64,000 bases of DNA from Vicinamibacterales bacterium (lineage in GTDB: Bacteria; Acidobacteriota; Vicinamibacteria; Vicinamibacterales; UBA8438). How positions within the stretch are numbered: the stretch's first letter is position 1; each line of letters begins with the position of its first letter. Shown one piece after another: positions 3,068 through 47,462 of this stretch. The stretch lies in contig OZ244656.1 in the NCBI GenBank assembly GCA_965218825.1, positions 836,965-900,964 of the forward strand. The letters run 5' to 3'. The position numbers were made by a program, and so were the translations under genes. Below the pieces are notes generated by a model. The model worked only from the letters and a program-made list of their open reading frames with translations. It had not been told where the DNA came from and made no database searches.

Positions 3068-3071
3068 GCTA

Positions 3072-4175: not shown

Positions 4176-4180
4176 CTGAG

Positions 4181-4567: not shown

Positions 4568-4576
4568 GGGTCACCT

Positions 4577-5122: not shown

Positions 5123-5186
5123 GATGGGACTGTCGGCCGAGCCGGCCGGCCAGCTCGGCGGGATGAGCGTCTCCGGGGCCGGTGGT

Positions 5187-5732: not shown

Positions 5733-5966
5733 GGGTGAAGTCGAGACAAAAACGCCCTTAGCTAGGACAGCCCCATAAAGATTGACTCGCCCGCCCGCCT
5801 GAGCTAGCCTTTCCTTGCCAAGCAACTCCACAGATGACTCGACATCGGGTCGCCCGTGGAATAGCACACCCCGTCAAGGGGAAATACACGGGAACCTCAG
5901 CACATCTGTGGGTTGTTTGGCAACGGGCCCGGTGACCACTTCCGGTCACGGGCGAAGGAGGTTGCC

Positions 5967-6428: not shown

Positions 6429-6440
6429 AGACCGCTAGAT

Positions 6441-6990: not shown

Positions 6991-7070
6991 GGGCTGGACG
7001 CAGCAGCGTAGAAGTGATTACCTTCAAACCACTGTCCAAGAACCCTGGGGCGGTACATGAGGTACTAACG

Positions 7071-8492: not shown

Positions 8493-9006
8493 GGCGTCGT
8501 ATCGAGCGTGGATCTACAAAGAGCGGGTGGGCCAGCAATGCGTTTCTCTTATTTGGACAGAAGTCACGAATACCTGGCTGCGTTCGATGAGGCCGCAACG
8601 GAAGGTCGGTGAAACCGCTGGCGTAGCCGGTCACGCGGCCACGCATTCCACCCGAAGCTGAGGACTGCAAGGAAGGTGTCCCACAGCCACCGGGCGGCTT
8701 CACCAGCGAGCCGAAGGATACGATAGAGGTCGATGCCAAAGGTTCATCTCTAGGAAAATCAACATCTTATTTCTGAGTGTGCCTCGGGTCACGTTGTTCT
8801 CGTCGGCGAACATGCGGCCGAACTGGTCAGCAACGAAACGACCTCGACGCCCGCCGCGGCCGCGAGTGTGGAGGTATCGACACCAACGGCTCGGCGTGCG
8901 CCGTACCCCCCCCACCCCCGAATCTCGTCCGGATGAGCGGCGTGACCGTCCCCCCTTGCGCGCAGTTTCGCAGAATTTGATTTCGAAAATTTCGGACGAC
9001 CCCCCT

Positions 9007-9372
9007 ATGAACATTGACGAAAAGGCCGAGATCCCGGACATGGCGATCGCCACGTGGCCCGAAACCACGCTCATTTCGCGCAAAACGATGACCGCGCGCC
9101 ACCTCCGTCGACGCCGCGCTGCGGCCCGCGAGAAGTGGCCGATGTATATGGCCGACGTGGCCTACCGAATCGAACGGCTCCCGCCGCCCCGCCGCCCCTA
9201 CGGACGGACCTGGGCACAAGTCGCCCGCGACAACTTCCTCGCCAGCTTCCCCCCGGGGATTCCGCCCTGGGCCTATGAAGCCCTGAAACCCGAATTTCGG
9301 CCGCGCACCATGACGCTCGCGGAAATCCTCGAGCCCTACACGGAGGAAGAACTTGCCGCCTACTACTACTGA
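9007..9372 (+). CDS. orfA family small protein (121 aa)
   Basis: MNIDEKAEIPDMAIATWPETTLISRKTMTARHLRR...EILEPYTEEELAAYYY*. Intact paralog. Confidence 0.7.
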   Translation: MNIDEKAEIPDMAIATWPETTLISRKTMTARHLRRRRAAAREKWPMYMADVAYRIERLPPPRRPYGRTWAQVARDNFLASFPPGIPPWAYEALKPEFRPRTMTLAEILEPYTEEELAAYYY

Positions 9373-9574
9373 CGAGTCGCTTCGGAGCGCCGAAGCCGAA
9401 CTTCAGGTCACGCTGGAAACCAATCACGCCGTCTCCAGGCTCTTCAGCGCGATCGCCATGCATAACAAGGCCATCGGGCTCGCCGCCGGGAGCGCCATCG
9501 AGAGCAAGGACCTCGCGATGATCCAAAATCTTCGGGGCCTCCTGGTCCTGATGACCGACAGCCTCGATCTCTAG
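9353..9574 (+). CDS. orfB family small protein (73 aa; TTG start overlapping the orfA end)
   Basis: (M)PPTTTDESLRSAEAELQVTLETNHAVSRLFSAIAMHNKAIG.. The stop codon TAG is supplied by the L junction gatcTCTAGgaaaatc. Confidence 0.55.
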   Translation: MPPTTTDESLRSAEAELQVTLETNHAVSRLFSAIAMHNKAIGLAAGSAIESKDLAMIQNLRGLLVLMTDSLDL

Positions 9575-9955
9575 GAAAATCAAAATCTCATTTCTGAGGT
9601 GCCTCGGGCCACGTTGTTCTCGTCGGCGAACATGCGACCGAACTGGTCAGAAACGAAACGACCTCGACGCCCACCGCTGCCGCGAGTGTGGAGGTATCGA
9701 CACCAACGGCTCGGCGTGCGCCGTCCCCCCCACCCCCGAATCTCGTCCAGATGAGCGGCGTGACCGTCCGCCTACTTTTGCGCGCAGTTTCGCAAAATTC
9801 TATTTTCGAATTTTCGGACGACCCCTTATGAACATTGACGAAAAAGCTGAGATCCCGGACATGGCGATCACCACGTGGCCCGACACAACGCTCATTTCTC
9901 GCAAAACGGTCACCGCGCGCCACCTCCGCCGGCTCCGCGCCGCGGCCCGTCGGCG
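9566..9955 (+). repeat. Modular repeat unit, copy 4 (L, R, orfA truncated after ~42 codons)
   Basis: Head-to-tail with copy 3. orfA starts at 9828 (MNIDEKAEIPDMAITTWPDTTLISRKTVTARHLRRLRAAAR). Similarity is lost near 9955. Confidence 0.8.
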
Positions 9956-10358
9956 TCCAGACCCAGGCCCGCAAGGCGTCGCCGTGGGGCGCCAGATCCG
10001 CCATCGGGACCCGGATCGTCCCCGGGCGCTCGACCCGCGCCTCGACCGTGGCGATCAGCCGCGCGATCCGGTCTGGGTCGAGCGTGCAGCGATAGACGTC
10101 GCGGAGCGTCACCCAACGGGCCGCGGCCATCCGGTGCAGCTCGAGAATCCAGCGCACGAGATTGACGTACGCCTGCCAAAACGGTTCTTTGCCCTTACCG
10201 AAGAGCTGGTTAATCAGGGAGATATTGCCAAATGTTGTGTCATGTGCGACCGTTGGTGATTGTCGGCGTCGCCCGGTCGGTCTGATCCGCCGCCGCGGCC
10301 GCGAGGTCGTGCATCCGCGCTTGGGGTGGAACGCATTGGCCGGGTGAGGGGCCTAATC

Positions 10359-10826
10359 ATGAAGAAATCCATTCTTGAAATTTACGCTTTAGCGGTCTGT
10401 TTTGTGGCTCTGGTATGCTTTGTCATTGCACTGGGGATCGGAGTGTACGACCTGATACAAATCGCCAACCCGGTGTTTACGATCAATGCGTACGAATACG
10501 ATCGACACCAGTCTAATGAAGCCTTTAGAAGGTTTCCGGGGCTGCATGGAATGGTAGGACCACGCCATCTGGCCTTCGGTTCCGGCGGGACCACTGGCGA
10601 AGTTGTTATCGAACCTGGAATTCCTATAGAACCTACGGCACCAGCAGCAAAAGAAGAGGTCACTCGACAGCGGGAAGAGAGCTACCAAGCGGCACTTCGG
10701 TCAGAGCGAAGGCGAGGGATGCAGAGTGTTCTACGGGTCGTGATTATCCTGGTGATCGATGTGCTGGTGTTTGTGCCTCATTGGTTCTTGGCCAGGAGAA
10801 TAAGAGATGCAAGCATGGTCAGCTAA
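10359..10826 (+). CDS. Small membrane protein, unknown function (155 aa)
   Basis: Hydrophobic N-terminal (ILEIYALAVCFVALVCFVIALGIGVY) and C-terminal (VLRVVIILVIDVLVFVPHWFL) segments. Locally AT-richer than the flanks. Confidence 0.55.
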   Translation: MKKSILEIYALAVCFVALVCFVIALGIGVYDLIQIANPVFTINAYEYDRHQSNEAFRRFPGLHGMVGPRHLAFGSGGTTGEVVIEPGIPIEPTAPAAKEEVTRQREESYQAALRSERRRGMQSVLRVVIILVIDVLVFVPHWFLARRIRDASMVS

Positions 10827-11185
10827 CGCACTTGTTCTCGCCATTTACCCAGGGCGCCACGCATACTACGTCAGGCCCTATGCATCCACCCAGGAGCCTT
10901 CGCCATGATTGGCACCCTCACAAGGAGCTCATCCAGGAGGACTGCCGCGGATAGAGATGGCACACCGGTCGGACCGGCGCGGGGACACGCCGCCCCGAAG
11001 CGTGGCCAGCAGGGCCATACGAACGATTGGCATCCCCCCCCGCGACTTCCATCGTGGCCCGGAACACTGAGCGTTCCACCGAGGGGCCGAAGATACAACT
11101 GCAGTCTGATTACTGTGCCGTCTCGACGCGAACGATACACTTGACGGGAGAAGCCCAGATACGCTTCGGCTACCGACAACCTCGA

Positions 11186-12005
11186 TCAGAGATCGTCGAT
11201 CGTTGCCCCTATCGCCGCGGTCTCTCCATGCGTTAGGCCGTCGTTCCTCCCCTCGAACGCTCCGCCAGTGTGCATCGCAAACTGCGACGCTGCTCGGTTC
11301 TGAAACTCTCCCTGCACCGTTCGGCGACGCGCGAACGAGAGAATGCAGGCGGCGCGCGCCCTCGTAATTGAGACGTACAGTAGGCGCGTCGCCTCAAGAA
11401 GCTGGGCAGGATAAGGTGTCTGGTGTTGGTTCGGCAGAAGGCCGTGCTCAAGCCCGGGGATAAACACGACGCGCGCGGACAGGCCCTTGGCTCCGTGCAT
11501 CGTCATAACTCGCACGCGATCCAGCTCCGGTGGCACATCCGCCGGGTCCACGCCCAAGCGCGTCGCCACTGCGCGGAGCACCTCGTTGCGCTGTTGCGCG
11601 TTATCGACCCAGATGTAGTCCCGCAACTCTGAAAGTAGCATGCCGTCAGCGAGTGGCGCGGCACACGCGTTCCACGCGGCCGACGCATCTGCGTCAATCG
11701 TCGATTCCACAATCGCACGCAGAGCGTGACGCCGCTGGCCGAGCGTATCCATAGGCGCCCAAGTGGCAATGGTGGCGCACGTCTGTCTCGCATCGTTAAG
11801 CGCATTCACTGAGCGCGTCGATAGCACTCCGTCCGGCAACTGGTCGTAATACAACCCACGAAAACTCGTCTGCGGCGTCGCGACAACGGCGGCACGTATG
11901 CTGTTACAGGTGCCGATGCCGACACCGCTCTTGAGTCCTAGCAACGTGCGGTGGGCGACAAGATCAGCCGGAATGCCGTTCTCGTCACGAGAGCCGATGA
12001 TGCGC
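11186..12005 (-). pseudogene. UvrD/Rep-type SF1 helicase, C-terminal fragment only
   Basis: VRVMTMHGAKGLSARVVFIPGLEHGLLP and LLYVSITRARAACILSF (helicase motifs V/VI). The reading frame continues upstream without a helicase N-terminus and abuts a partial modular repeat at ~12005-12011. Confidence 0.7.
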
Positions 12006-33797: not shown

Positions 33798-34511
33798 CCG
33801 CACACTTTTCGACGGCCGCCCGTGCCGACTTCACCGCGGCCAGCACCCGTGTCAGGAGTCGTGTGCGCGTTTCATCCACCACACCGGCACGGGCGGTCCG
33901 GCCACACCCCCTCGTCGGCTCCGCCCACGCACCCAGGGTCCACCGCCGTGCCACACGACCTGCTCACGGCATGCCTCCGACGATCGAATCCCCATAGACG
34001 GATCTCGCTGCGGTTTCGTCCAACCCGTTTTTTGTCTACCGTCGCGGCGGTGATCAGTGGGCCTCACCCCGGCGCCCTCGCGCCGCGGCGCCACACAAAA
34101 AACGCTCTGCGTTTGCGACACACCGGCAAAGACCCCTTCCAGCCAGCGCTGCTGTGTGTCGTATCCCGTGTCTGATTCTATGTCTTGCAGACGTCGAGCG
34201 CGTGTGCCCCCGACTGGGCCATGTTGCAGAAATATCTCGGGCGTGCCATCTAGATCCTGCGTGAGGGGGGCGGAGCGTTTTGAGCGGGCTTCCTCAAGAA
34301 TGGACTTGAACGACTTGATCAGGATCTCCCGCTATGCCTCGGCGGTGCCGAGGGCTCGCTGAATTACGTAACGCGCTCCCGGCTGAGCATTCTACTTCTG
34401 GTGGACTGATTGTAGACGGCCGGTCAGCCGAAGGTGGCATAGGACCAGCGTTGTGCACGACGCCACGCCCTCCGAGAAAGCCGCCACGCTCGAGGCAACT
34501 TCAGTCGAAAT

Positions 34512-35360
34512 CTAGTTTGCCAAGAACCTATCGATGGCCGAATGTGTCACTACTCTCGGAGCGGTTCTTCGCACGAGTCGCCGTTGACTTTTCAACCGAC
34601 CACTATCGTTCGCAAGGCCACTGAGCGCAAAGCACTCCAGCTTCAACACGCGGGCAAACGTCATCGCCAAATCGACCATTTGCTCCGTAGTTTCCAGCTG
34701 CTGACGCAAGTTGCCAGAAATCGAGGCCGGGAATTTCGTTGGATCCAAAGCAGCAGGAAAGGCCTGTGATGTCTCGAACGCGCAGAACATGTCATAGGTG
34801 ACTGCGTTCCTTGTGGTCGTTTGCCACACCAAGTCGGTCGGTGGCGTAAGGGCTCCAGCAAGACCCAGTGGGGCCCAAGGCCTGACCTTCGCCGCCGAAT
34901 CGTAAAAGAACGCCCAGAAAGCGCCGTGAGTCCCTGGTGCATGAGCCGGCAGTGGAGGGTTACGGGTGATCAGGAATTCTTGGCTATCCGGCATTTGCGC
35001 GAGAACGTCAATCACTGTTCTTTTGCCCTCGGTCTTCACATACCCACCAAACATCCCAAGAATAGCGTTTGCAGCGAAGAACGAAGAGTAGTACAGAGTC
35101 ACGTGTGCCCACGGCGCGGCTACAGGTACCAACATATCAAGGGCACGCCGATAATTGCTAGCTGAGTAGAGAAGCCAACGTTCAACGGAGCTCAATAGTG
35201 CGAGTCGGTAGGTATCAAAACGCGGCTCACCCTCACGAAGATGGGTCACTCTCTTGAAGTCCTCTACCACTACCTTTACAGAACGTGGGACGCCAGTCGG
35301 AGGCGTCGACAACGGTCTACAGAAATGCTCAGAACCAGGGTCTAGATCAAATAAGTTCAT
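34512..35360 (-). CDS. Hypothetical protein, possible degenerate HEPN-like partner of the DGQHR protein (282 aa)
   Basis: Helical pattern. ..HVTLYYSSFFAANAILG.. and ..TTTRNAVTYD.. (RN-x3-Y instead of RN-x3-H). Sits 9 bp downstream of the DGQHR gene. AT-richer than the flanks. Confidence 0.4.
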   Translation of the reverse strand: MNLFDLDPGSEHFCRPLSTPPTGVPRSVKVVVEDFKRVTHLREGEPRFDTYRLALLSSVERWLLYSASNYRRALDMLVPVAAPWAHVTLYYSSFFAANAILGMFGGYVKTEGKRTVIDVLAQMPDSQEFLITRNPPLPAHAPGTHGAFWAFFYDSAAKVRPWAPLGLAGALTPPTDLVWQTTTRNAVTYDMFCAFETSQAFPAALDPTKFPASISGNLRQQLETTEQMVDLAMTFARVLKLECFALSGLANDSGRLKSQRRLVRRTAPRVVTHSAIDRFLAN

Positions 35361-35369
35361 AGAAACCAG

Positions 35370-36350
35370 TCAATCGATAAAGACTTGCTTTGCAATCTCC
35401 TTGTAAAGGTCTCTCACACCAGCTGTGCCTTGCGCCCTGCGAACCGCCTCATCGGAAAGCGTCTCGGGTTTGATTTGTTTAAACATTTTTCGCAACGCTC
35501 GTGTTGTCAGTGTCTCGATCGGTCTGTCTTGCATCATCTTGTCGAGCACACGAATCATCGCCCGCAGGACACGAGCTCGGAAAAATGGTGATTTCGCATC
35601 ATCCCACTCATCTGGATTGAGCGATCGAATGGCCGTAAAGAATCGCACAAACAGAGCCAAGTAGTCGTCAAAGCCAGTGTCAGGAATCCTCTTCAGATGT
35701 CTCTTTAGAAGAGTTCTGATTTCAGGCGCCAACGAACCCTGCCTTATCGTCAGCGACCTACGTTCCGTATCCTCCCCCGTCAGATCGATCTGTCTCTCGG
35801 CAGCAAACGGACTCTCGTCTTCTGTCGCCAACGCGTAGACGATATCCGACGTCATTACCGTGGCCTGATCTTCGCTGCGGCGAGCAAGACGGTACAGGTC
35901 CCATCTCAGTGACGACGGAACTCGCCGTTGAGTGGCATTGATCTCCAAAAATAGCTCTGCCATCTGAGCTTCACTACGATTCATGTGAATCACACATGGG
36001 TAGAGACCTTCCACCTCAGAGTACTCCTGTGCGTACAGACGATGCTGACCATCTACAACCAGGAACTTCGAAGTCTGCGGTAGCATGAGGCAATTACTGA
36101 CCTGCTTAAACGTCTTTGCGGTGGTTGCAAGCACAATCGCGTTTGGAAAAGCTCTGCTCTCGTCCAACACCGTATGTGCGATCGCCTTCGCACGTGTTTT
36201 ATTGACGATGCGTTGAAAGCCCTTTTTGGGCTTCTTTATGCGCCAAGATGGCGTTGCATGGTCCAGGAGCCATTTTCCCGGCAGGGCAGTCAGGTAGATG
36301 TCTGGATCTGTCCGCAAGACAATAACCTGAGAATTCTTTGGGGGCGTCAT
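35370..36350 (-). CDS. DGQHR-domain (DndB-like, ParB/Srx superfamily) protein (326 aa)
   Basis: Literal motif FLVVDGQHRLYA. Upstream ..GFQRIVNKTRAKAIA.. as in DndB-type proteins. Confidence 0.75.
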   Translation of the reverse strand: MTPPKNSQVIVLRTDPDIYLTALPGKWLLDHATPSWRIKKPKKGFQRIVNKTRAKAIAHTVLDESRAFPNAIVLATTAKTFKQVSNCLMLPQTSKFLVVDGQHRLYAQEYSEVEGLYPCVIHMNRSEAQMAELFLEINATQRRVPSSLRWDLYRLARRSEDQATVMTSDIVYALATEDESPFAAERQIDLTGEDTERRSLTIRQGSLAPEIRTLLKRHLKRIPDTGFDDYLALFVRFFTAIRSLNPDEWDDAKSPFFRARVLRAMIRVLDKMMQDRPIETLTTRALRKMFKQIKPETLSDEAVRRAQGTAGVRDLYKEIAKQVFID

Positions 36351-36613
36351 CGAAGTGTCCTGCTCATCCCTACGTCGTTCGTCCTGATGCGTTCTGCTCT
36401 CACGGAATCTTCCTATTTCTGGATTATCAACGGCTGGCCAGTAGCACTTGGCCCACTCAAGACCGACGACTTGCTGACCACCCGAGAACTCACTCCTCGT
36501 CTACCGAGCTTCGTCTCAATCGCTCCGGCCGAGAATTGATGATCGCGACCCATTTCAACCGGGATTTCCTTTTTGCTCATCCCGGTCGGCACCGTTATAC
36601 ACCAACCGACTTC

Positions 36614-37440
36614 TGAACCGTCCCGGGTTTCTCGGAGACCTCATTGCTTAATCGGAGACCTCATTGCTTAAGAGGATGGGGTCTATGGGACGTTCAAGTC
36701 GGTTTTCCCAGGAGGTGCGCGAGCGTGCCGTCAGGATGGTCAAGGAGCACCGGGAAGCCCACGCCTCAGAGTGGGCGGTGCTGCGATCGGTGGCGCCGAA
36801 GCTCGGCTGCACGGCGGAGACGCTGCGGAAGTGGTTGCGGCAGGCGCAGCGTGATGCTGGGCATCGGCCGGGCCAGACGACGAGCGAGCGGGAGCGGTTG
36901 CAGGAGTTGGAGTGCTTGGTCCGCGAGCTGAAGCGGGCGAACGAGATCCTGCGGAAAGCATCCGCGTATTTCGCCCAGGCGGAGCTCGACCGCCGGGGGA
37001 AGTAGCCAGGATGGTCCAGTTCATCGACGACCATCGCGCCAGGCTCGGGGTCGAGCCGATCTGCGCCGTGTTGCCGACCGCCCCGTCGACGTATCATCGC
37101 CATCGGCACCAGCGGACCGATCCGACGCGCCGGTCCGCGCGGGCGCAACGCGACGATCAGCGCTGCGGCGAGATTCAGCGGGGCGATGCCGAGCACCAGC
37201 AGGTCTACGGCCCCCGGAAAGTCTGGCAGCAGCTGCGGCGGGACGGCGTCTGCGTGGCACGTTGTACCGTGGCGCGCCTGATGCGCGCGATGGGCCTCGC
37301 CGGTGCGGGCGGTCGCCCCGTGGACCTCGTCGACCGCCAATTCGTGGCCACCCGTCCGAATCAGCGCTGGGTCTCCGACTTCACATGTGTCGCGACCTGG
37401 GGCGGCGTCGTCTACGTCGCGTTCGTCATCGAGCGGAGCA
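36614..37440 (+). mobile_element. IS3-family remnant: left IR, intact orfA (about 36673..37005), orfB truncated after ~143 codons
   Basis: tgaaccgtcccgggtttc.. at the left end. OrfA ..SRFSQEVRERAVRMV...LKRANEILRKASAYFAQAELD. OrfB from 37011 MVQFIDDHRARLGVEPICAVL...NQRWVSDFTCV. A 20-bp tandem duplication tcggagacctcattgcttaa lies at 36632-36671. Confidence 0.75.
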
Positions 37441-37685
37441 ACAACGGCTCTGGAAGGCGACCGCCCGGGGGCTGTCGAGTGAGGAGGCCGCTGTGTCATG
37501 TGGCGTGTCTCCGCCCGTGGGTGGTCGTTGGTTCCGTGAGGGCGGTGGGATGCCGCCGATCAGCTTGGCGCCGCCGTCGGCTCGTTACCTGTGCTTTGAT
37601 GACGTCTCAATGAGGATCTCGCACGAGGCTGTCTACCAAGCGCTGTACATCCAGGGGCGGGGGGGCACTGCGACCGCGAACTGAC
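37441..37685 (+). pseudogene. IS30-family transposase fragment
   Basis: ..GLSSEEAAVSCGVSPPVGGRWFREGGGMPPISL...RISHEAVYQALYIQGRG resembles the N-terminal third of IS30 transposases, with a frame break. Confidence 0.5.
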
Positions 37686-37712
37686 GGCCTGCCTGCGCAC
37701 CGGTCGTGGCGT

Positions 37713-38999
37713 CTACTGTGATTGGTTCGCTCGTGCGACTTCGCACTTCTTTTTCTTGCGGCCATGAATCTGAACGAGGTTGTCTGGAATAGGTACCGGG
37801 AACTGATGATCTTGGCCCATCTCAATCAAATCCCACGCGAACTCGCGCAACTCGAAACCATCAGAGGATTTCTTTTCTTTGCGGACAACCGGTATCTCCG
37901 GGTACTGCCGCGTGTCCGGGCGGTCGCGTAACTGAAACGCCTCATGGAAGCCACTCGCGTCAAGGAATTTTTGGACGAGCCCCGCGTACGGTGGGAAGGC
38001 GCCACCGTAGCCGATCACCCGCCGTGCGGCTGCCACCATCTCCAGCTCTTCTTTCGTCCACGTGGGGGCGACGTAGGAGTCCTTCTCAAAGGCATGTTCT
38101 CCGCTTAACGGCTGGTACCGCATCGGGTACGCACTCACGCCCCACGCGAGGAGGTCGCTCACGCGCTTATAGAGATCCGCTGGCGTGTCTTTGTAGTTGT
38201 AGAGGACATAGCAGCAAATGTGACGGAATCGGCGGTTCGTCAGTCCAGCTTGTTTCAGCAGCAGAACGGCCCTCTTGACCGCCTTCTCCATTTGAGAAAA
38301 ATCGTACGCCAACCGGATCGTCGGCAGCTTCAACCCCTTGAGCGCCTCCGCAACATTCTCAGTCACCAGTCGTGCATCGAGGCCCTGGTTGAAGTCCACT
38401 TCGACATTCAGTTCCTTCAACTCAGCGATTACGTCGCTCCATGCCGATTCGCCAAGAATGTTGTTGTCCCACAGAATCACGCGCTTGTGGTCCGGATGCA
38501 CAAGATGTTTCACGCGCGTGGTAGGCCGCGCCTGGAACGGCTTGCCCTCCAAGGCGGGAACGGCACAGAACGCACAACTCCGGATACACCCGCGATGACT
38601 AAAGAGGATCGAAGCGGCGCGTTCACCTTCAGCCCATTCTGGCACGAGCGAATAGTCTGGCATCAGGTCTTCAGCTTCATGAACGAGACCCGCGACAACC
38701 TCGTGAGCGCCGCTCTGCTGCGCGTGTTCCGGAGTCAATGAGGCATAGATACCACCGAGCGATACCTTCGCTTGCGGAAACAGAGCCTTGTAGAAGGCCA
38801 CGGCTTCCCACACTGGCTTCCATGCCCAGGTAAACAGGCTCGTGACTTTGATCTGGTCTGGCACGAACTTCGTCACGAGCTTCAGCCCATTGACGAAGTG
38901 AATGTCGTGCCCCTGTGACTTGTAGAGCGTGGACAGTTTCAATAGGCCGAGCGGCGGATACTGTGAGTAGTAGCTTGGTTCTACGAGGAGGATCTTCAT
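37713..38999 (-). CDS. Radical SAM enzyme with a B12-binding-like N-terminal domain (428 aa)
   Basis: MKILLVEPSYYSQYPPLGLLKLSTLYKSQGHDIHFV (class-B-like N-terminus). CxxxCxxC cluster in SHRGCIRSCAFCAVP. Confidence 0.8.
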   Translation of the reverse strand: MKILLVEPSYYSQYPPLGLLKLSTLYKSQGHDIHFVNGLKLVTKFVPDQIKVTSLFTWAWKPVWEAVAFYKALFPQAKVSLGGIYASLTPEHAQQSGAHEVVAGLVHEAEDLMPDYSLVPEWAEGERAASILFSHRGCIRSCAFCAVPALEGKPFQARPTTRVKHLVHPDHKRVILWDNNILGESAWSDVIAELKELNVEVDFNQGLDARLVTENVAEALKGLKLPTIRLAYDFSQMEKAVKRAVLLLKQAGLTNRRFRHICCYVLYNYKDTPADLYKRVSDLLAWGVSAYPMRYQPLSGEHAFEKDSYVAPTWTKEELEMVAAARRVIGYGGAFPPYAGLVQKFLDASGFHEAFQLRDRPDTRQYPEIPVVRKEKKSSDGFELREFAWDLIEMGQDHQFPVPIPDNLVQIHGRKKKKCEVARANQSQ

Positions 39000-39286
39000 T
39001 GCACGGCTACTGTGCTGGCATCAGTGATAGGAGCGGACGGCTCGATGGTCCGATCCTTCCATGCACGGATGCGCTCAATGTCCGCATCAGTATAGAAGCG
39101 GTGGTTGGAATGGGCGATGCGAGGAGGCGCGGGAAAGTCAGCGTAGCGCGGGTCGCCACTCGCCTTCTTCTTCTCCCATCGGAAGAGCGTGTCTTGGTTG
39201 CGCCGGTAAGTTTTGGCACTTTAGCGTTTCGATGCGGGCTCGCCAGTTCTTCTCCCCTTGCGACCACGTTCAACCCTGACCACCAT
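38996..39286 (-). pseudogene. AlpA/MerR-like HTH gene with an in-frame TAA, coupled (ATGA) to the radical SAM gene
   Basis: MVVRVERGRKGRRTGEPASKR*SAKTYRRNQDTLFRWEKKKASGDPRYADFPAPPRIAHSNHRFYTDADIERIRAW.. TAA at 39221-39223. There is no alternative start downstream of the stop. Confidence 0.45.
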
Positions 39287-39436
39287 GACAGGAGAGGTCG
39301 CTACTCGCTGCTGGAACTACGTTGGTCCATATCGATTTCCGTGCATAGAATAGCATCGATCGAATCAGTACCGGGCAATACTTATCGACTTGAATTAATC
39401 AAGACGGTACCTGTCGGTACCATAAGGGGAAGTGTG

Positions 39437-40507
39437 ATGGAGACGATAATTGAAGTGGAAGAGGTGATGGTCGGCGGGCAGATGCTGCGGCTCAAGCACG
39501 AGAACATCCCGATCGATCAGTTGGAGTTGGACCCGGACAACCCACGCATTAGATACCGGCTCCAACACCAGAAGCCTGGCGGCGAACAGGAGCAGGAACT
39601 GCTCGGCTGGCCGGACGTGATCAGGCTCCGCAAGGACATCGAGAAAAGTGGTGGCCTGCGTGAGCGCATCATCGTCCAGTGGGACCCGAGAACGAAGAAA
39701 TACAAGGTCATCGAAGGCAACTGCCGAACGGTGTCCATCCGCCACCTAAACAGCAAGAATCCAAGCGACCAGAAATGGCAAACGGTCATCGCCAAAGTGT
39801 TGCCGCCCGACGCTGACAGGCGGGCCGTCGCCATTCTGCTCATGGATTTCAACGTCGTCGGCAAGATCCAGTGGAAGGCTCATGAGAAGGCGGCGCAGGT
39901 CTACCTGATGCACACCGATCTGAAGATGACCCTCGACGAGATCGCGCTGTACATGAGGACCAGCAAGACGACGGTGCAGCGGCTCCTACATGCCCACAAG
40001 GCGATGAACGAACTGTTCCTAACGATGGACGACGGATTGTACGAGAAGAAGGGCGAGGGTGCGTGGAGTTTCTTCGATGAACTATATAAATCCCCTGAAC
40101 TGCGGAAGAAGATGAAGGCTGAGCCTGAGTTCGTTGAGGATTTCTGTCGGTGGGTCGGCGACGAACGGCTGACGGCGGGGGCCGACGTGCGCATGCTGCC
40201 GAAGATTCTCAAGGACCCGGTGGCCGTGAAAAAGTTCACGATGGGACCGGCTAATACGGCGTTTCAGGACGCCAAAAAGCTCGTCGCGCAGGCCGAGCCG
40301 GAGATCGGAAGCGACTTCTTTAAGCTCCTAGAAAAAATGCGGCAGGCCTGCACGGACGCGGCGCATGTGAAGGAGATCCTGAAGATCCGCCGCGACAGGA
40401 TCGCGCGCCAGCGATTGATCGATACGTACGATGCACTTGTCGGGTTCATGCAACTAGCGGACGTGAACCCAGAGAAAGTCACAACTAAGCAGAATAAGTC
40501 CTCCTAG
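39437..40507 (+). CDS. ParB-like N-terminal domain protein P1 (356 aa)
   Basis: RBS aagggga. IPIDQLELDPDNPRI, KVIEGNCRTVSI, KIQWKAHEKA, HTH-like LDEIALYMRTSKTTVQRLL. Start taken at the internal ATG of ORF 38915..40507. Confidence 0.7.
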   Translation: METIIEVEEVMVGGQMLRLKHENIPIDQLELDPDNPRIRYRLQHQKPGGEQEQELLGWPDVIRLRKDIEKSGGLRERIIVQWDPRTKKYKVIEGNCRTVSIRHLNSKNPSDQKWQTVIAKVLPPDADRRAVAILLMDFNVVGKIQWKAHEKAAQVYLMHTDLKMTLDEIALYMRTSKTTVQRLLHAHKAMNELFLTMDDGLYEKKGEGAWSFFDELYKSPELRKKMKAEPEFVEDFCRWVGDERLTAGADVRMLPKILKDPVAVKKFTMGPANTAFQDAKKLVAQAEPEIGSDFFKLLEKMRQACTDAAHVKEILKIRRDRIARQRLIDTYDALVGFMQLADVNPEKVTTKQNKSS

Positions 40508-40750
40508 CAGCCCGTGGTGAAAGTAAGGGACCGACACGAGATCCGCTGTACTACACTCTGCGCGGCCACCCGTTCTACCAGCGCTGGAAATCAGGTACAT
40601 GACGCGCACTCCTCCGACGAGCTCGTCGAGAGCCAGTGCGTCCCTTTCTACGCGGACGGGGTTGGTCGGCCGAGTCTGACATCGGGCACGTACTTCCGCC
40701 TCCTGTTAGTCAGGTGCTTCGAAGGCATCGATTCGGAGCGCGGCTTCCTC
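40506..40750 (+). mobile_element. IS1182-like left-end fragment
   Basis: agcagcccgtggtgaaagtaaggg.. equals the IR at 48838. Translated FYADGVGRPSLTSGTYFRLLLVRCFEGIDSERG parallels FYAPVMGRPSLAPGRYFRLLLVGYFEGIDSERG of the 48909 transposase. Confidence 0.65.
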
Positions 40751-40856
40751 GGCCTGAAGCCTCGACGAAGCGCCGCCTGAGCACTCGACGATCTCGCGCA
40801 CGCATCTGGCCCTGAAAGCAGCACGGTCTTCTTGGTCACTGCGTCGAGAACTCGGC

Positions 40857-41873
40857 CTAAGGGGTAGTGGACTTCCCGGCGAGTTCGGCGTCGACCATTT
40901 GGGAAACACGTCTCAGGCGCCGGCTGATTTGCCTGACGACCTGCTGCACGGCCTTCACTTGGTTGCGCTCCAGGGGGGCAAGGTCGTCCAGCTCGATGTC
41001 GTCCAGACCCTCGCGGATCTTCTTGAGTCGCTGTTCGGCACCGCTGATCTTTGCGCGGTCATGGGCATCCTCGAGAGTCACGTCGCCCTTCTCGTATTTT
41101 CGAAGGATTTTAGGCTTTGCGATAATGGTGGGTAGGCGTTCGCGCATCTCTTGAGCAGTGAAGTCCCTTGTCTTGATCTGGGACAACAATGTGCCTCGTA
41201 GTGGTCTGCTACCTTCGATTGCAGACGAGATGGCCCGGTTTCGAACAAGGACGTAGTAATAGCTGAAGTTGGAGAGAGTGTTGTCGTCGTTCTCCTGCAT
41301 GAACTCGATGGTCTTGACGTTCTTCTTGATCTCGGCTGTCGTGAAGCCGGACAAGTCCGCCAAGGTCGAGATGTCTTGTTGTTCTTCGACCGCCCAGCGG
41401 AAGCAAAACAGCGCCTTGGCGTACGGGGACCACTCGGTTTTCCCGTGAAGATGTGACTGGCCAAGAAGGCGTGTCTGTTGATCAGCGCTAAGGGTCTTGA
41501 CGACAAGGCAGCGGATCTGTGTCCAGGTCTCGTCGGCGGGGTGTTCATCATCGAGCTTGCGGTAGGCCGCCAGGCGGGAATTGCCTTCGATGACTTCCTG
41601 AGTGTCCCAGCGGACGATGATCGGATCTTGTAATCCACCGTCTCGTTGAATTTCAGGTATGAGGTTCTTGACGCTCGACTCGTGGAGCAGGCGCTCGTAT
41701 ATGCGACGCTGCTGCTCTTCGGGGGTGAGGCCTGGGAAATCCGCCATTTCTCTGATGGCGGCGTATACGCGGGGGTTGCCAGACAGGAAGCGGAGCTTAT
41801 GGATCGGGATTAGCTGGTGGTTGGCGGGAACGTCCTGTCCCATTATGGCGATGGTCGTCTTGTCGAGGTTCAT
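40857..41873 (-). CDS. ParB-like N-terminal domain protein P2 (338 aa)
   Basis: IPIHKLRFLSGNPRV, EVIEGNSRLAAY, KTEWSPYAKA. Start at the internal Met MNLDKT, 30 nt after the SNF2 stop. Confidence 0.7.
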   Translation of the reverse strand: MNLDKTTIAIMGQDVPANHQLIPIHKLRFLSGNPRVYAAIREMADFPGLTPEEQQRRIYERLLHESSVKNLIPEIQRDGGLQDPIIVRWDTQEVIEGNSRLAAYRKLDDEHPADETWTQIRCLVVKTLSADQQTRLLGQSHLHGKTEWSPYAKALFCFRWAVEEQQDISTLADLSGFTTAEIKKNVKTIEFMQENDDNTLSNFSYYYVLVRNRAISSAIEGSRPLRGTLLSQIKTRDFTAQEMRERLPTIIAKPKILRKYEKGDVTLEDAHDRAKISGAEQRLKKIREGLDDIELDDLAPLERNQVKAVQQVVRQISRRLRRVSQMVDAELAGKSTTP

Positions 41874-41902
41874 CGGTCTGTAGTCTTGGATTCTTCGGAA
41901 GA

Positions 41903-43372
41903 TTATTGGTTGGAGGTGACTCGATCGGGAAACAGGACGCCTTGGAGCACCTCGGATATGTCCGTGCGGAAGGAGTCGCGGAAGGCGACGGCGGCAATGT
42001 CGCCCTGGGCGAGTTGCGCGGCCCGGTACTTCGCCATGAGCAGGACGTCGACCCATTCGTCGATGGTCTCATTGGCAATGAGATTGTGGATGAAGCACTC
42101 GCGTGTCTGGGAGATCCGGTGGATGCGGTCTTGTGCCTGCAGATAGTCGTCGAGGCTGAAGCCGCGATCGTAAAAGATGGCGTGGTTCGCGACGGTCAGC
42201 GTAAGGCCCTCCTTGGCGGCGCCTGGCGTCGCGATGAGGACTAAGTTGGATGAGTTGGTGAAGGACTGCACCGCCTGGTTTCGCTGGTGCATGGGCAAAG
42301 AGCCGTGTATGCATACAGGGTCAAATTCGGCGAGCTTCTCGGCTAGCCAGTTGACGTTGTCGACGAATCCAGTCCAGATGATCAACTTGGATCCGACGGT
42401 GAACTCCCAGCACATGTCGAGGAGCAGAGGGAACTTCGCAGGGTCGTGCTCGTAGCGCCCATCAATAAGCGCCGGGTTCGAGGCGCATTGGACGAGGCGC
42501 AGGAGTCGCTTGAGAATGCTGTCAACGTTGTCGATTTCGACAACGCCGTCGGTGTCGTACTCGTAGGCGAGTTCGTCGCGGTAGGCGGCGTACTTCGCCA
42601 TCTGCCAGGGGGGCAAGTCCACATGGTGGAAAGTTATGGTTTTCTCAGGCAGGTGGATGCCCGCGGTGTCCTTGGTCTCTCGGACAGTGAACTGGGCGAG
42701 GCGTTGATGGATCGTGGCCAGGCGGTTGCCATAGTCAGACGCTGCCGAGTGCCTGGCGGGCAAATCCATTTGCTGCCTGAATGCGTCGAAGGTGTCGCCG
42801 AGCGCTTCGCCGCCGTCCAGGAACTTGATCTGCGACCAGATGTCGTACGGACGGTTCGCGGCAGGGGTGCCGGTCATGATGATGCGCCGCTCGAAGGACG
42901 AGGCCACGTCGTGGAACGTGCGCGTCAGGGCGGCTTCGGGATTCTTAATTTTTTGGCTCTCGTCTAGGATGCAGCCGACGCGGCAAGTCTGCAGGAACAG
43001 TCTAATGACTGGGCCGTTGGCCGCGATGACTTCGTAGTTGGTGATGTAGAGGAGTGCCGGCGAGTTGAGGGACGCGCTATTCTGGACTCGATTGCCGGAC
43101 AGAATGTGTGGCGTGATATGGCAGTGCCGCGTAACTTCGTTGCGCCAGTTTTCCACCAGCGACTTCTTGGTGACGACGAACACGGTATCCACGGCATCGC
43201 TCTGTAGCCATTGCAGGGCGAGGTCGATCGCGATCTTCGTCTTTCCGAGACCCTGCTCATGGAAAATGGCGGCGTACGGAAGATCCTTGACGGCGCGGAA
43301 GGCGTCGAGCTGGTATGGATACGCCGCGTGCTTAGGCGACAGTTCAGGCTGGCGTCTCAGCACAAACGCCAC
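41903..43372 (-). CDS. SNF2-family helicase/ATPase (489 aa)
   Basis: HEQGLGKTKIAI (I), CILDESQKIKN (II), IIMTGTPAANRPYDIWSQIKFL (III), ATPGAAKEGLTLTVANHAIFYD (V), QAQDRIHRISQ (VI). Confidence 0.9.
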   Translation of the reverse strand: MAFVLRRQPELSPKHAAYPYQLDAFRAVKDLPYAAIFHEQGLGKTKIAIDLALQWLQSDAVDTVFVVTKKSLVENWRNEVTRHCHITPHILSGNRVQNSASLNSPALLYITNYEVIAANGPVIRLFLQTCRVGCILDESQKIKNPEAALTRTFHDVASSFERRIIMTGTPAANRPYDIWSQIKFLDGGEALGDTFDAFRQQMDLPARHSAASDYGNRLATIHQRLAQFTVRETKDTAGIHLPEKTITFHHVDLPPWQMAKYAAYRDELAYEYDTDGVVEIDNVDSILKRLLRLVQCASNPALIDGRYEHDPAKFPLLLDMCWEFTVGSKLIIWTGFVDNVNWLAEKLAEFDPVCIHGSLPMHQRNQAVQSFTNSSNLVLIATPGAAKEGLTLTVANHAIFYDRGFSLDDYLQAQDRIHRISQTRECFIHNLIANETIDEWVDVLLMAKYRAAQLAQGDIAAVAFRDSFRTDISEVLQGVLFPDRVTSNQ

Positions 43373-43809
43373 AGGGGTGCTCCAAGGGGACCCAGGGTCC
43401 AGAAGTCGAGGCCGTCGAACAGTTTTACGTGGAGTCGGGACGACACGCGTTGGCGGCAGGCGAAGCGGAGTACCGTCCTTGCTGAATATGCGACGTGTCC
43501 GTTGACGGCCAAGATGAAGGTGCCGGTGCCTGTTGTCATGGCGTCAAGGTGGTCCACGAAGGCACCGATCTGACTCCGAGTATGTCGGTTGTCGATGTCA
43601 CCGTCGGTCTTGGCTTCCGCGATGACGAACTGGAGGCAGGCGGCGGTGCATCGGGCGATGATGTCGGGACGGTGGGCGCCGATGCGCTGGGGCACCGGGT
43701 CGCCGGGAGCGTCGAGGAGGTCCGTTGTGACGTGCATCGCCGGATGACGCTGTTGTATGGCTTGTGCGGCGGCGATGACTAGCCGACGGTGCGCGTTACT
43801 TTGAGACAT
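43357..43809 (-). CDS. Small PD-(D/E)xK-type nuclease-like protein (150 aa)
   Basis: ..IGAHRPDIIARCTAACLQFVIAEAKTDGD.. (PD ... ExK). Overlaps both neighbours (14 nt and 16 nt). Confidence 0.55.
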   Translation of the reverse strand: MSQSNAHRRLVIAAAQAIQQRHPAMHVTTDLLDAPGDPVPQRIGAHRPDIIARCTAACLQFVIAEAKTDGDIDNRHTRSQIGAFVDHLDAMTTGTGTFILAVNGHVAYSARTVLRFACRQRVSSRLHVKLFDGLDFWTLGPLGAPLWRLC

Positions 43810-44830
43810 CTTGGAGCAGGTCGCGAAGATGGTCGGCGAGGTCGCTCAGCGTATCTACGTCTTGGTCCGCGGTCTCGTATTGCCGGTCGCGGAGGGCAAG
43901 GTAGTCCCCTCGCGGCAGGGCTTTGATCCTCTGAAGCAGCACCTCAGCCAATACCGCCATGCTGGCATTGGCGACAGTGGTGTCGATCGACGAAGGATTC
44001 ATGTCCTTTTGACGGTTGGCCTCGGCAACGGCGATGGCGTCTTCGATAGACCGGATGCCGCCGTTGACAAAGGTGTCTTTCGCCTCGTCGTCGGCAAGAA
44101 CGCGGGGTAGCCTTCGAACGTCGGCCAGTCGGTATATCTGGCCGTCGCGTATCCAGCGGCCGAAGTCGTGGAGGTCAAAACCCGCGCTGTAGATGGAGTC
44201 CTTGACATCCCTGTTCTGGAGCTCGACAAAGCCGCTGAATCGATCGACCTTGAACGCGTCGTCGCTGTTGACGTCGCGGTAGAACTCGTTCATGTCGTGG
44301 TAGGCGTCGATTTGCTGGGTGATCGTCTTCTTGTTGCCCCCGCACCGGGCGATGAGCTCGTCGTAATCCATGAACTCGACGTTGCGCAGGTGGTGAAGGT
44401 ATCGGGCCTTCTCGTAGGCGGGCCATTCGCGTGCGCCGACGAGGTGGGCGGTGACCCGAATCGTCTCAATGTCCCGCTGGTCGGGATTGTCGAGCACGAG
44501 GCAGTTGATGGCGGTCCAGTCGCCTGGAGCGCTCTCCTCGTCGAGCTCATAATAAACGGCTAGTCGGGTGTTGCCGTCGACGCACACGAATCGACCGTTG
44601 TCGGACCAGACGACAACAGGTACCGAGATGCTTCCAGCCGCTCTGATGGAGTCCTTTAGAGAGCGGTAGGAGGAAGCGCTGGCGGATCCTTCCGTGGCGG
44701 TCTGTAGTGCAAAGCGGATGCGTTGATCGTCGAGCTTGTCGCCGTACTTCTCCAGAGCAACCTTGATCCTCGGGTTCTGCCGGTCGAAGTCAATCTGGCT
44801 GGTGGGGATGAGGTGGTATGTGCTCTTCAC
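43796..44830 (-). CDS. ParB-like N-terminal domain protein P3 (344 aa; GTG start)
   Basis: IPTSQIDFDRQNPRI, FVCVDGNTRLAVY, AREWPAYEKA. Same architecture as P1 and P2. Confidence 0.7.
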   Translation of the reverse strand: MKSTYHLIPTSQIDFDRQNPRIKVALEKYGDKLDDQRIRFALQTATEGSASASSYRSLKDSIRAAGSISVPVVVWSDNGRFVCVDGNTRLAVYYELDEESAPGDWTAINCLVLDNPDQRDIETIRVTAHLVGAREWPAYEKARYLHHLRNVEFMDYDELIARCGGNKKTITQQIDAYHDMNEFYRDVNSDDAFKVDRFSGFVELQNRDVKDSIYSAGFDLHDFGRWIRDGQIYRLADVRRLPRVLADDEAKDTFVNGGIRSIEDAIAVAEANRQKDMNPSSIDTTVANASMAVLAEVLLQRIKALPRGDYLALRDRQYETADQDVDTLSDLADHLRDLLQDVSK

Positions 44831-45160
44831 GATAGTCTCACGTCGCTAGATGTCGTGGCGTCGTGGGTCTAACAGCCCGTGGAAGAAGTCTGTTCGCTGA
44901 GCCAGCCCGGTCAGGCAGCTTGGCAATGAGCGATTGAGCCGACGAACGCCGCCGGTGTCTATTTGGACCCCCAAGCGAAAGTCAGACGCCCCCAGCGGTC
45001 GATCCTCCACGTCTTCGATGTGAACAGGTATCCGTCATCGCGAACGACCAGCCGCCGCCGCAGGTTTACAGCCGACCACATAGAGTAACAAGAATTGCGC
45101 GCGGATACCCCCGTTGCTCCGCCTCCCCGGTCCCTCGCCGGCCGTCAAATTGGTGCGTGA

Positions 45161-45289
45161 TCAGATCCGCCAGAGCGCATCGGGGCTGCGCGAGACACCG
45201 ACCACGCTCTCGCCACGGGCGACGAGGGCGGCGGTCGTTGCCGCACCGATGCCGTCAGAGTTTCCGACGATCAGAATCCGCTTCGCCAT
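45161..45289 (-). pseudogene. Short-chain dehydrogenase N-terminal stub (42 codons)
   Basis: MAKRILIVGNSDGIGAATTAALVARGESVVGVSR (Rossmann TGxxxGIG-like), then an early stop. Confidence 0.45.
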
Positions 45290-45447
45290 GAATTACCTGG
45301 AATTTCCGTTTTGCCTGCCCCGGATGGCCCCTTTCATACACCCGAAGGCCGCAGTACCCACGAAAAGCTTCTTCATCGCACCATCGTCCAGGTTCTGAGG
45401 CCGTCACTCAGCTCGCACTGCCGTCTTGCGGGCTGAATCCTGGGCTT

Positions 45448-46155
45448 TTAGGGTATTCCTTCGACACCACTCCGCACTTGTGTCCTCGCTTTGCCAAGCC
45501 GGCGTTCTTGCACTCGCCGCACGTCAACCCCTGCCGGGACCGGCAGCGCCCAGATCCGCTGGAGCATCGCCCCGAACAGGTGTCGGGTCAGGTGACTCTC
45601 TGCCAGGAACAGCCAGTAGTAGCGCGCGTGTTTTACCAACCGCCCGCTCGTTTTGACCAGGCGCTGCTGCAGGCTGGTCAATGACCAGCGCTCGATGCGC
45701 GTGGGCAGGACCAGCCGCCGCCACAGATTCCCCACGTTGTACGCGAGTACGCTCAGCTGCAGCCGGACCTCGTTCGCTCGAAATCGATGGCACGACAGCC
45801 GCGTCCAGTGCGTGGCCTGCTTGCCTTCCTTGATCCATTGCTCGGCGGTGCCGCGCTTGTTGGAGAACCGCACGACGGCGCGATTGTGGATCGGGAGATT
45901 CGTCACGATAAAGCCGACGCGCGGGAACAGCTCGCCGACGTGGTGCTCGACTTTTGCCACGACCCGCCGGGGCGTGGTCCAGCTGTCCGCCTGGTACTGG
46001 AAGCGCTTGTACCGAATGAGCGGCGTGAGGCTGGGCCGTCCCGGTGACCGAAACAGGAGGTCTTCGATCGCCAGCTCCAAGTTCTTGTTTGCCGGTATCC
46101 GGATCGGGTACCGGACGCCGCGCGCATCCGGATCATGACCGCGATCCGGCATCAT
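45448..46155 (-). pseudogene. IS1380-family transposase, C-terminal ~235 aa only
   Basis: ..FSNKRGTAEQWIKEGKQATHWTRLSCHRFRANEVRLQLSVLAYNVGNLWRRL...WSLTSLQQRLVKTSGRLVKHARYYWLFLAES. Confidence 0.7.
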
Positions 46156-46161
46156 CTGCCG

Positions 46162-46609
46162 CTAGTGCATGCGCTTTCGACGTCGTCGCCGTTTCACGCC
46201 GGCCGCGAGACCGGTTTCAAGTCCTACCGGCTGAGCATCATGGATGCACTTCCGCGCACCAGCCTTCCCGCCCCGCTGTTGTCTCAGGTGGATTACGACC
46301 GCGTCGTGGCGGCCTATCAACGCATGAAGTTCATCGAAAATAGCAGTGAATTGTAGTGGGACGTCCGCCCCTCGCACCGCTTCCCGACGGTAGAGATGCG
46401 GATCTGCGACGTTTGCCCGTGTCTCGACGATGCGGTGAGCATCGTCGCGCTCTATGCCCGTCAGCACGGGCGGAACTGATGACGTAGAACGGCGACAGAG
46501 CGATGAAGTTGCAGCAGTGGAGGTCCAGGTGGTCCAGGACCTTGAGACCGGCCAGCGCGGCGGGAGGAGGATAGACCTGACGAAGCTTCGCCATGGTGTC
46601 GATTGTCAT
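46162..46609 (-). pseudogene. Pyridoxamine-5'-phosphate-oxidase-family gene, frameshifted
   Basis: [47 protein letters not shown], then a frame change (..[15 protein letters not shown].. in ORF 46162..46467). Confidence 0.35.
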
Positions 46610-46719
46610 TGCTACCTCCTTACATGCGGCCGCATGAAACATACCATCACGCAACTCTCACGGGAACCGCAAGTGCTGCGCGCCAACCATGTGAACGGTC
46701 ATCGGCGTACCGAGACCAC

Positions 46720-47462
46720 CTACCGGGAATCTCCACCGAGATACTCGGCCCAGTCGTCCATCAGGTGCCGGCGGCGCTCGAACAGGTCCGAGCGCGCGTA
46801 GGCCGCCTCGACCTTGTTCTGGACGACATGCGCCAGCGCCGCCTCGATGACCTCACGCGGGTGATTGGTTTCTTCGGCCGCCCAGTCGCGGAAGGACGAC
46901 CGGAACCCGTGCGGGACGGCCGCGATTTGGTGCGTCCGGAGTAGCTGGACCAGCCGCTGGGCGTCCAGGGGCTTCCCGCGCGGCGTGGGAAACACGAGCG
47001 GGCTGCGGCCGTCACCGATCGTTCGCGTCGCCGCGAGGATCTCGAGGGCCCGCCCACACAACGGCACCCGGTGCTCCCGGTTCGCCTTCATCCGCGTGGC
47101 GAGAATGGTCCAGACGTGGTCCGTCGTGTTGATCTCGTCCCACGTCGCCAACCGCACCTCGCCCGATCGTGCCGCGGTCAACACCAGGAACTCAAACGCC
47201 AGTGTGACGACTGGCGCCGTGTCCGACGCCCGCACAGTCGCCAGCGCCGCCGCCACCTCTCGATGGGGCAGCGCCTGTCTGTGCTGCACGTGGTCCTGCT
47301 GCGGACCCAGCACCGGCCCGAGCCGGTCGCACGGATTGTCCGCACGATAGTGCATGGCGATGGCCCACTCCATCACGGCATGGATGCGTTGCTGGATGCG
47401 CCGCGCTGTCTGCCGCTTCACGTGCCAGATCGGGGCGAGGATCCGCACGGCGACATCTCGGT
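46720..47462 (-). pseudogene. P4-like tyrosine integrase, C-terminal catalytic half only
   Basis: ..ILAPIWHVKRQTARRIQQRI..., LTAARSGEVRLATWDEI, HRVPL, HGFRSSFRDWAAE, LAHVVQNKVEAAYAR. The N-terminal 150 aa of the 406-aa ORF is antisense to cas1. Confidence 0.75.

Follow-up and report, generated by a model that had tools for sequence, protein, structure and literature searches.

Within the DNA-modification defence systems Dnd, Dpd and Ssp, the DGQHR proteins are the components about which least is understood. DGQHR proteins of the ParB/Srx fold bind nucleotides and DNA. It has previously been reported that DndB, a DGQHR protein, negatively regulates the dnd operon (PMC4507180) and that DpdA depends on the ATPase DpdB to insert its base (PMC10164549). 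Fusions of ParB-like DGQHR/DUF262 domains to HNH, PD-(D/E)xK or HEPN nucleases are common (PMC3632139), DUF262 proteins drive the nucleases attached to them (PMC4619093, PMC3632139), and GmrS and GmrD are encoded by two genes or by one fused gene (PMC4619093). HEPN genes recur beside ParB-like genes, as operons and as fusions (PMC3710099, PMC3632139). Here we analyse a pair of genes in a 64,000-nucleotide stretch of a Vicinamibacterales genome (assembly GCA_965218825.1, contig OZ244656.1, positions 836,965 to 900,964; hereafter the window), which encode a DGQHR-domain protein (DG) and a 282-amino-acid protein (P282):

35370-36350, minus strand: DG gene, a 326-amino-acid DGQHR-domain protein with a ParB/Srx-like fold predicted for its N-terminal part and a helical C-terminal half
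34512-35360, minus strand: P282 gene, a 282-amino-acid member of an unannotated family, predicted to form a helical bundle with a three-stranded beta insert

The best explanation overall, to which we assign a probability of roughly 0.6 as a blended figure, is that the pair is an orphaned accessory module in which DG would be a sensor controlling P282.

DG contains the sequence FLVVDGQHRL, and the reading of VVDGQHRL (residues 97-104) as a family motif in an earlier note on this DNA is borne out by the DGQHR domain model TIGR03187, against which DG scores 111.2 bits (cut-off 58.85) and which places it among the DGQHR-domain proteins. The match to Pfam DndB (PF14072; 7.8e-10) is likewise above its cut-off, and the best PADLOC match, almost full length, is DpdB (3e-14). 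Both equivalog models remain out of reach, with 61.8 bits for the dnd-associated TIGR04172 (cut-off 450) and 53.6 bits for the DpdB model NF041060 (cut-off 300). The AlphaFold2 model of DG (mean predicted local distance difference test score, pLDDT, 83) consists of an N-terminal alpha/beta domain and a helical C-terminal half, its top PDB match being the ParB-like CTP-binding protein PadC (probability 0.95, E 0.07). Over 31 DG orthologs 77 columns are invariant, including GFQR, FPNA, DGQHR and FLEIN-x2-Q-x2-VPSSLRWDL.

DG resembles DndB in combining the DGQHR motif with a ParB-like N-terminal domain, and both proteins are linked to a gene cluster of the DNA-modification type. The two differ in that the genome of the window has no dndC or dndD, that DG falls far below the TIGR04172 cut-off, and that DG is placed at the 3' end of operons, invariably with P282 behind it; Dnd systems have no P282. 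With Dpd the locus shares a DGQHR ATPase together with an SNF2-like helicase (DpdE), the SNF2 protein of the window matching DpdE models; moreover, the ATPase DpdB aids a DNA-modifying enzyme (PMC10164549). The difference lies in the enzyme, considering that the genome has no DpdA and that the partner here is a radical SAM protein with a GHKL ATPase, not a transglycosylase. As the earlier note had stated, no dnd or ssp genes are present near the pair; the scan of the window found no dpd genes there either, and dndC, dndD and dpdA are missing from the whole 5.4-Mb genome.

For comparison, 100 loci were gathered from public assemblies, species genomes and metagenomes. In each of the 88 unique loci in which upstream sequence is present, DG is the gene immediately 5' of P282, and the median distance from the end of DG to the start of P282 is 8 nucleotides. 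In the window the spacing is 9 bp, as had been noted before, together with an RN-x3-Y motif in the partner, which is found as R184-N-A-V-T-Y189. The hosts include Acidobacteriota, Gemmatimonadota, Gammaproteobacteria, Bathyarchaeia and Thermoplasmatota. One genome out of 401 from Acidobacteriota carries both the DG subfamily (E 2e-157) and P282, neither of which is found in any other of them; the remaining DGQHR matches reach 3e-25 at best, and the pair is missing from 60 relatives of the genome studied here. DG and P282 therefore form a two-gene module with obligate pairing and translational coupling. This module is at the same time an optional accessory of a larger system, because 7 of the 401 genomes have the radical SAM enzyme of about 550 amino acids that belongs to this system and only one of the 401 has P282. 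One of the seven orthologs of this enzyme (L136, G313:C19:151835-153409) contains an in-frame TGA.

The larger system became visible by label-free clustering of 1,108 open reading frames (ORFs) from the 100 loci, in which six families are the only recurrent neighbours of the pair:

GHKL ATPase, about 520 amino acids, 50 loci
Radical SAM enzyme with a B12-binding-like N-terminus, about 545 amino acids, 47 loci
Second DGQHR protein ('DCQHR'), about 345 amino acids, encoded immediately 5' of radical SAM, 37 loci
ParB-like paralogs, 35 loci
SNF2 helicase, about 490 amino acids, 29 loci
Small protein, about 140 amino acids, 19 loci

Pfam and PADLOC annotation of the family representatives is consistent with these cluster labels. 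The most frequent layout is second DGQHR, radical SAM, GHKL, DG, P282, and DG follows the GHKL gene co-directionally at an operon-like distance in 22 of 52 loci; DG itself is a distant paralog of the second DGQHR protein (27% identity). A four-gene block of ParB-like, small protein, SNF2 and ParB-like genes joins on either side and in either orientation, so that the modules stay adjacent while their order and orientation change. The system consists of a modification-like core (second DGQHR protein, B12-type radical SAM enzyme of about 550 amino acids, GHKL ATPase) and a restriction-like module of two or three ParB-like proteins, the small protein and the SNF2 helicase. Intact systems of nine genes are found, for example, in L011, L042 and L025.

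The earlier note had called the pair stand-alone, a description that fits the degraded copy in the window but not the family: of the 22 non-duplicate loci that extend 9 kb or more to each side of the pair, 20 contain one or more modules of the system. The two exceptions are a decayed copy and L019, a Thermoplasmatota metagenome-assembled genome (MAG) locus in which ParB-like, Mrr, SNF2 and Dam methylase genes in fact adjoin the pair: at positions 2756-10846, in a variant with no radical SAM gene at all, DG and P282 are preceded by two ParB-like genes, an Mrr_cat nuclease, an SNF2-type helicase and a D12-class (Dam-type) adenine methylase. Other variants carry three ParB-like paralogs with SNF2, consist of six genes including neither radical SAM nor GHKL (L034), or have a core in the order second DGQHR, 657-amino-acid GHKL, 470-amino-acid protein, 548-amino-acid radical SAM (L147 1-5279 and the P0007 contig). 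The expectation that homologs of the pair would be found next to radical SAM, ParB-like and SNF2 genes with no insertion sequence (IS) in between holds in most long contigs (L011, L016, L014, L025, L042). Homologs of the pair were never found inside dnd, ssp or dpd clusters, and none of these genes is among the conserved neighbours in the 100 loci. Searches of the system proteins against PADLOC 2.0 and NCBIfam 20 gave no named system, only generic similarity to SNF2, ParB and GHKL proteins, and no description of a radical SAM/GHKL/ParB/SNF2/DGQHR gene set was found in the full-text literature. In six to seven loci an additional trio stands beside the system, consisting of a GHKL paralog of about 542 amino acids, a HerA-like DUF87 ATPase of about 473 amino acids and a 295-amino-acid protein (examples are L043 1548-3176, L006 7283-8704 and L069 3564-4442).

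In the window the pair lies in an island that starts past a tRNA-Arg gene and is rich in defence-type and mobile genes. The features around it are the following:

34475-34480: junction at which the RES-domain toxin gene of the nearest relatives is missing, the flanks joining at 34478
36351-36649, minus strand: conserved upstream region of about 300 nucleotides, kept together with the pair and perhaps serving as its promoter region
36614-37685: IS debris, IS3 family, between the pair and the 428-amino-acid radical SAM gene
37713-38999, minus strand: 428-amino-acid radical SAM gene, member of a cassette, with a small helix-turn-helix (HTH) gene upstream
38915-40507, plus strand: 530-amino-acid ParB-like gene, member of the cassette, divergent from the radical SAM gene
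40816-40839, minus strand: radical SAM stub, the first 8 codons (VTKKTVLL) of the usual gene of about 550 amino acids
40857-42056, minus strand: 399-amino-acid ParB-like ORF, restriction-like module
41903-43372, minus strand: 489-amino-acid SNF2 helicase (Pfam SNF2-rel_dom, Helicase_C)
43357-43809, minus strand: 150-amino-acid protein, nuclease-like, restriction-like module
43796-44830, minus strand: 344-amino-acid ParB-like gene, restriction-like module

The restriction-like module (40857-44830), whose PADLOC matches are ZorD/DpdE-like and PD-Lambda-5_A-like, is homologous to modules that adjoin DG-P282 in many loci. Over positions 40817-44848 it is 90.6% identical in nucleotides to L140, which comes from a same-family genome (G397; G019 is apparently the same assembly) and where the ParB/SNF2 block is directly followed by a 548-amino-acid radical SAM gene and then by a 501-amino-acid GHKL gene. 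The stub, which stands directly after the stop of the 399-amino-acid ParB-like gene, aligns to the L140 start MTKKNVLL, and the homology ends at 40817, 22 nucleotides into the radical SAM gene. This deletion breakpoint is shared with L001, a metagenomic contig that is the nearest relative; L001 is arranged in the same way throughout, truncation included, has a longer copy of this IS3-family element at the corresponding place, and carries an extra IS between DG and P282 that makes it the sole outlier in spacing. The IS3 debris itself had been recognised earlier, and the ORF at 36912-37613 on the plus strand indeed matches HTH_21 and the start of rve. The GHKL partner, the second DGQHR protein and the radical SAM enzyme of about 550 amino acids are absent from the whole genome, and no remnants of them beyond the 8-codon stub were found in 36351-37712, 40508-40856 or 44831-46800, so that of the complete set of core genes only eight radical SAM codons are left. 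In relatives with 79-86% P282 identity, the pair still stands beside the second DGQHR, the radical SAM of about 550 amino acids and the GHKL gene. Considering the truncation at 40817, the absence of the core from the entire genome and its retention in the relatives, the pair in the window is an orphan within an island that was acquired horizontally and eroded by IS elements. Taken together, membership of the pair in a module of the larger system and its orphan status in this genome are very probable.

At the other end of the pair, the RES gene of L001 (10883-11799, 241 amino acids) has no counterpart in the window, the alignment showing a clean 916-bp gap, and in L147 a RES gene (10972-11748) stands directly 3' of P282. 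On the P0007 contig a 447-amino-acid HEPN_RES_NTD1+RES gene is convergent to the pair.

The radical SAM gene now closest to the pair has a different history. Its 428-amino-acid product is 29% identical to the usual enzyme and belongs to a separate subfamily that is large (over 2,600 members, 65-85% identity) and well conserved. In three unrelated genomes (L143-L145) the short radical SAM gene has two constant companions, a small gene of the MerR/HTH type and, divergently oriented, a ParB-like gene of about 348 amino acids, the products of the latter being 49-51% identical to the 530-amino-acid protein of the window; transposases of the IS1595 or DDE type border the cassette, which in one case lies between gidB and parA in the neighbourhood of a chromosome origin region, and neither DG nor P282 is found beside it in these loci. 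Judged by these sequence comparisons, 37713-40507 is an independent, widespread and highly conserved mobile cassette of three genes and not the usual partner of the pair. The earlier note had proposed that the segment from 37.7 to 44.8 kb and the pair may once have formed a single continuous locus; this segment proves to be a composite of the truncated ParB/SNF2 module and the independent cassette. IS activity and deletion have broken up the island, and the unrelated radical SAM/ParB-like cassette now stands between its parts.

The pair and the short radical SAM gene are AT-rich, as had been observed, with a G+C content of 0.51-0.54 and 0.565, respectively, compared with 0.635 in the genome as a whole. 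Homology to L147 at the nucleotide level (84%) spans 36649 to 34475 and ends at IS elements, and a sigma-70 consensus scan upstream of DG gave no site above chance. In comparison with L001, the ratio of nonsynonymous to synonymous substitution rates is 0.09 for DG and 0.32 for P282 (17 and 18 nucleotide differences), and both ORFs are intact and still under constraint. Codon 188 of P282 (34797-34799) encodes T in the window only, with N in L001 and in 96 of 100 family representatives; this change may be an early sign of relaxed constraint.

P282 has no family match in Pfam, NCBIfam or PADLOC. Its family comprises about 300 members in 5.8 billion proteins (212 clusters in 1.84 billion representatives), all labelled hypothetical and of uniform length (about 275-300 amino acids), and no fusions to other domains occur among the 1.84 billion representatives, so the family is compact. 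The AlphaFold2 model (pLDDT 85, predicted template modelling score 0.85) has a three-stranded insert after the second long helix. The family signature is R184-N185-x2-N188-Y189 together with H145, Y90/Y91 and W149. In 100 full-length cluster representatives, which are 17-46% identical to P282 of the window, R184, Y189, H145 and W149 are invariant (100/100), Y90 and Y91 are conserved in 99, N185 in 97 and N188 in 96. Because residues are so strictly kept at 17-46% identity, the pattern suggests an active or ligand-binding site.

The suggestion that P282 is HEPN-like fared differently in sequence and in structure. Profile comparison gives it no support: no match at E<=10 was found in Pfam for 28 members of the family, HEPN models included, a sequence-profile search of the PDB returned only noise, and hhalign gave a probability of 0.08% against an alignment of 24 PF05168 HEPN sequences from genomic HEPN genes. 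No HEPN_MAE_28990 (PF18737) sequences were found in the 201 genomes searched. Foldseek searches of PDB and BFVD likewise gave nothing significant (no match at E<=0.001); the weak matches include five classical HEPN structures (2hsb, 1ufb, 3o10, 1o3u and 1wol) with target-normalised template modelling (TM) scores of 0.33-0.57, well above other helical bundles, the top one being 2hsb (probability 0.75, TM 0.57). The helical bundle predicted for P282, with an insert after the second helix, resembles that of the HEPN-T proteins (PF05168; 2hsb, 1o3u), and the R-x4-Y spacing also occurs in some true PF05168 sequences (L116, L117). The Rx4-6H motif is not present in P282, where R184-N-x-x-N/T-Y189 has no His and the Tyr is invariant in 100/100. 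It has been described that the classical HEPN group often has no motif His and carries a conserved His elsewhere (PMC3710099), and P282 has H145 in the same manner. On the other hand, P282 differs from HEPN-T in having no significant sequence, profile or fold match and no histidine of the Rx4-6H motif. HEPN membership of P282 is not established.

These features can be arranged into a possible mechanism. The second DGQHR protein, encoded by the first gene of the operon, would be a likely helper of the radical SAM enzyme, and DG, as a putative nucleotide-dependent DNA-binding protein of the ParB/Srx fold, would read the state of the DNA handled by the system and control P282. P282, with its enzyme-like invariant site (R-N-x2-N-Y plus His), would act as an effector or adaptor and, if an effector, could be a non-canonical HEPN-type nuclease; the RES toxin genes downstream in relatives would fit an abortive-infection layer. 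The assignment of the sensor role to DG and of the effector or adaptor role to P282 draws on analogy and is tentative, standing clearly short of even odds. A parallel in design is provided by GmrS/GmrD, SspE and BrxU (DUF262 + DUF1524), which also join a ParB-fold nucleotide-binding part with a DGQ(H/Q)R motif to a second, effector part (PMC4619093, PMC3632139). P282 differs from that second part in having no DUF1524/HNH match and no fused form, and cleavage by P282 is putative only. A sharper version, in which DG would be a ParB-fold NTPase clamp that senses the presence or absence of a putative DNA mark set by the radical SAM/GHKL core and activates a HEPN-like P282 nuclease, is in our view improbable in this exact form. 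If true, such a pair would be a new kind of reader-effector; it would give the system a second, abortive-infection layer and would be a handle for finding the DNA modification made by the radical SAM enzyme.

Several points weigh against the orphaned sensor module as a whole, and they concern both the origin of the pair and the work of P282. The pair is downstream of and co-directional with the truncated ParB/SNF2 module, which fits the order in L011, but the G+C content of that module is 0.57-0.63, with the pair lower by 0.06-0.07, whereas in 18 intact loci the difference between pair and module is only -0.02 to +0.05; in addition, the genome of the same family that has the ParB/SNF2 module has no pair. 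It is no less likely that the pair arrived separately and afterwards lost its own core than that it came with the ParB/SNF2 module. Given the six-gene form L034, the pair and the ParB/SNF2 module might also still be working together. As regards function, the effector role of P282 is a guess, because the protein has no significant relative in sequence or fold, and its motif has no HEPN histidine. Since RES toxin genes stand directly 3' of P282 in the nearest relatives, the role of the toxin may belong to other genes, with P282 as an adaptor.

A regulatory role of the DndB kind would assign the same genes differently: DG would bind promoter DNA of the system and tune the modification operon in a nucleotide-dependent manner, with P282 as a non-catalytic co-regulator. 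DndB itself sets the precedent as a negative regulator with a DGQHR motif (PMC4507180), DG exceeds the Pfam DndB cut-off, the pair is optional, as regulators often are, and in L149 and L147 it is divergent from an operon headed by the second DGQHR gene, with which it has a common intergenic region. The operon, however, is already headed by a DGQHR gene of its own, directly 5' of radical SAM in 37 loci, which is the better analogue of DndB and DpdB; the R, N, Y and H of P282, invariant at 17-46% identity, look catalytic or ligand-binding, and no HTH was detected in DG or P282 by family-model scans. We regard such a role as unlikely. Still less probable is an independent two-gene toxin-antitoxin or abortive-infection module that meets the radical SAM/SNF2 genes only through defence islands. 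This possibility would account for the 21 of 52 loci with no system gene within 1.2 kb upstream of DG, for the conserved upstream region of about 300 nucleotides and the IS flanks in the subclade of the window, for the persistence of the pair here under purifying selection after the core is gone, and for the RES toxins that adjoin it in relatives. Co-location in islands, however, predicts varied neighbours, and the same six families alone recur across Acidobacteriota, Gemmatimonadota, Gammaproteobacteria and two archaeal phyla, with at least one of them in 20 of 22 fully flanked loci and DG placed behind GHKL, in the same direction and at operon-like distance, in 22 of 52.

It could also be supposed that the 428-amino-acid radical SAM is the cognate of the pair, in a single native locus that was continuous with all three ParB-like genes before the IS insertion. 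With the IS debris taken out, the stop codon of the radical SAM gene and the start of DG, both on one strand, are about 290 nucleotides apart; with a G+C content of 0.56 the cassette comes close to the pair; and in L018, an archaeal MAG, a short radical SAM of 54% identity with a ParB-like partner stands beside DG-P282, a second independent co-occurrence. Against this, the cassette is self-contained and IS-flanked elsewhere, with DG/P282 in 0 of 3 contexts examined; the short radical SAM accompanies the pair in 2 lineages only among 91 unique P282 loci; the relatives of the pair (79-86% identity) adjoin the radical SAM of about 550 amino acids, GHKL and the second DGQHR instead; and the ParB/SNF2 module demonstrably had a different radical SAM attached. 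As the general cognate of the pair, the 428-amino-acid enzyme is rejected, considering its occurrence elsewhere as an independent cassette with no pair, and only L018 keeps the single locus as a minor rival with a slim chance.

The system to which the pair is attached belongs with the defence-type DNA-modification systems that contain DGQHR proteins. For the genome studied here, the result is chiefly the correct annotation, in which the pair is an orphaned remnant in a decayed, IS-ridden defence island. For the family it means more: a distinct DGQHR subfamily is now tied to an uncharacterised family of about 280 amino acids with an enzyme-like invariant site, and the pair is defined as a separate, optional add-on to a widespread radical SAM/GHKL system, whose intact nine-gene representatives allow the system to be compared with and without the pair.

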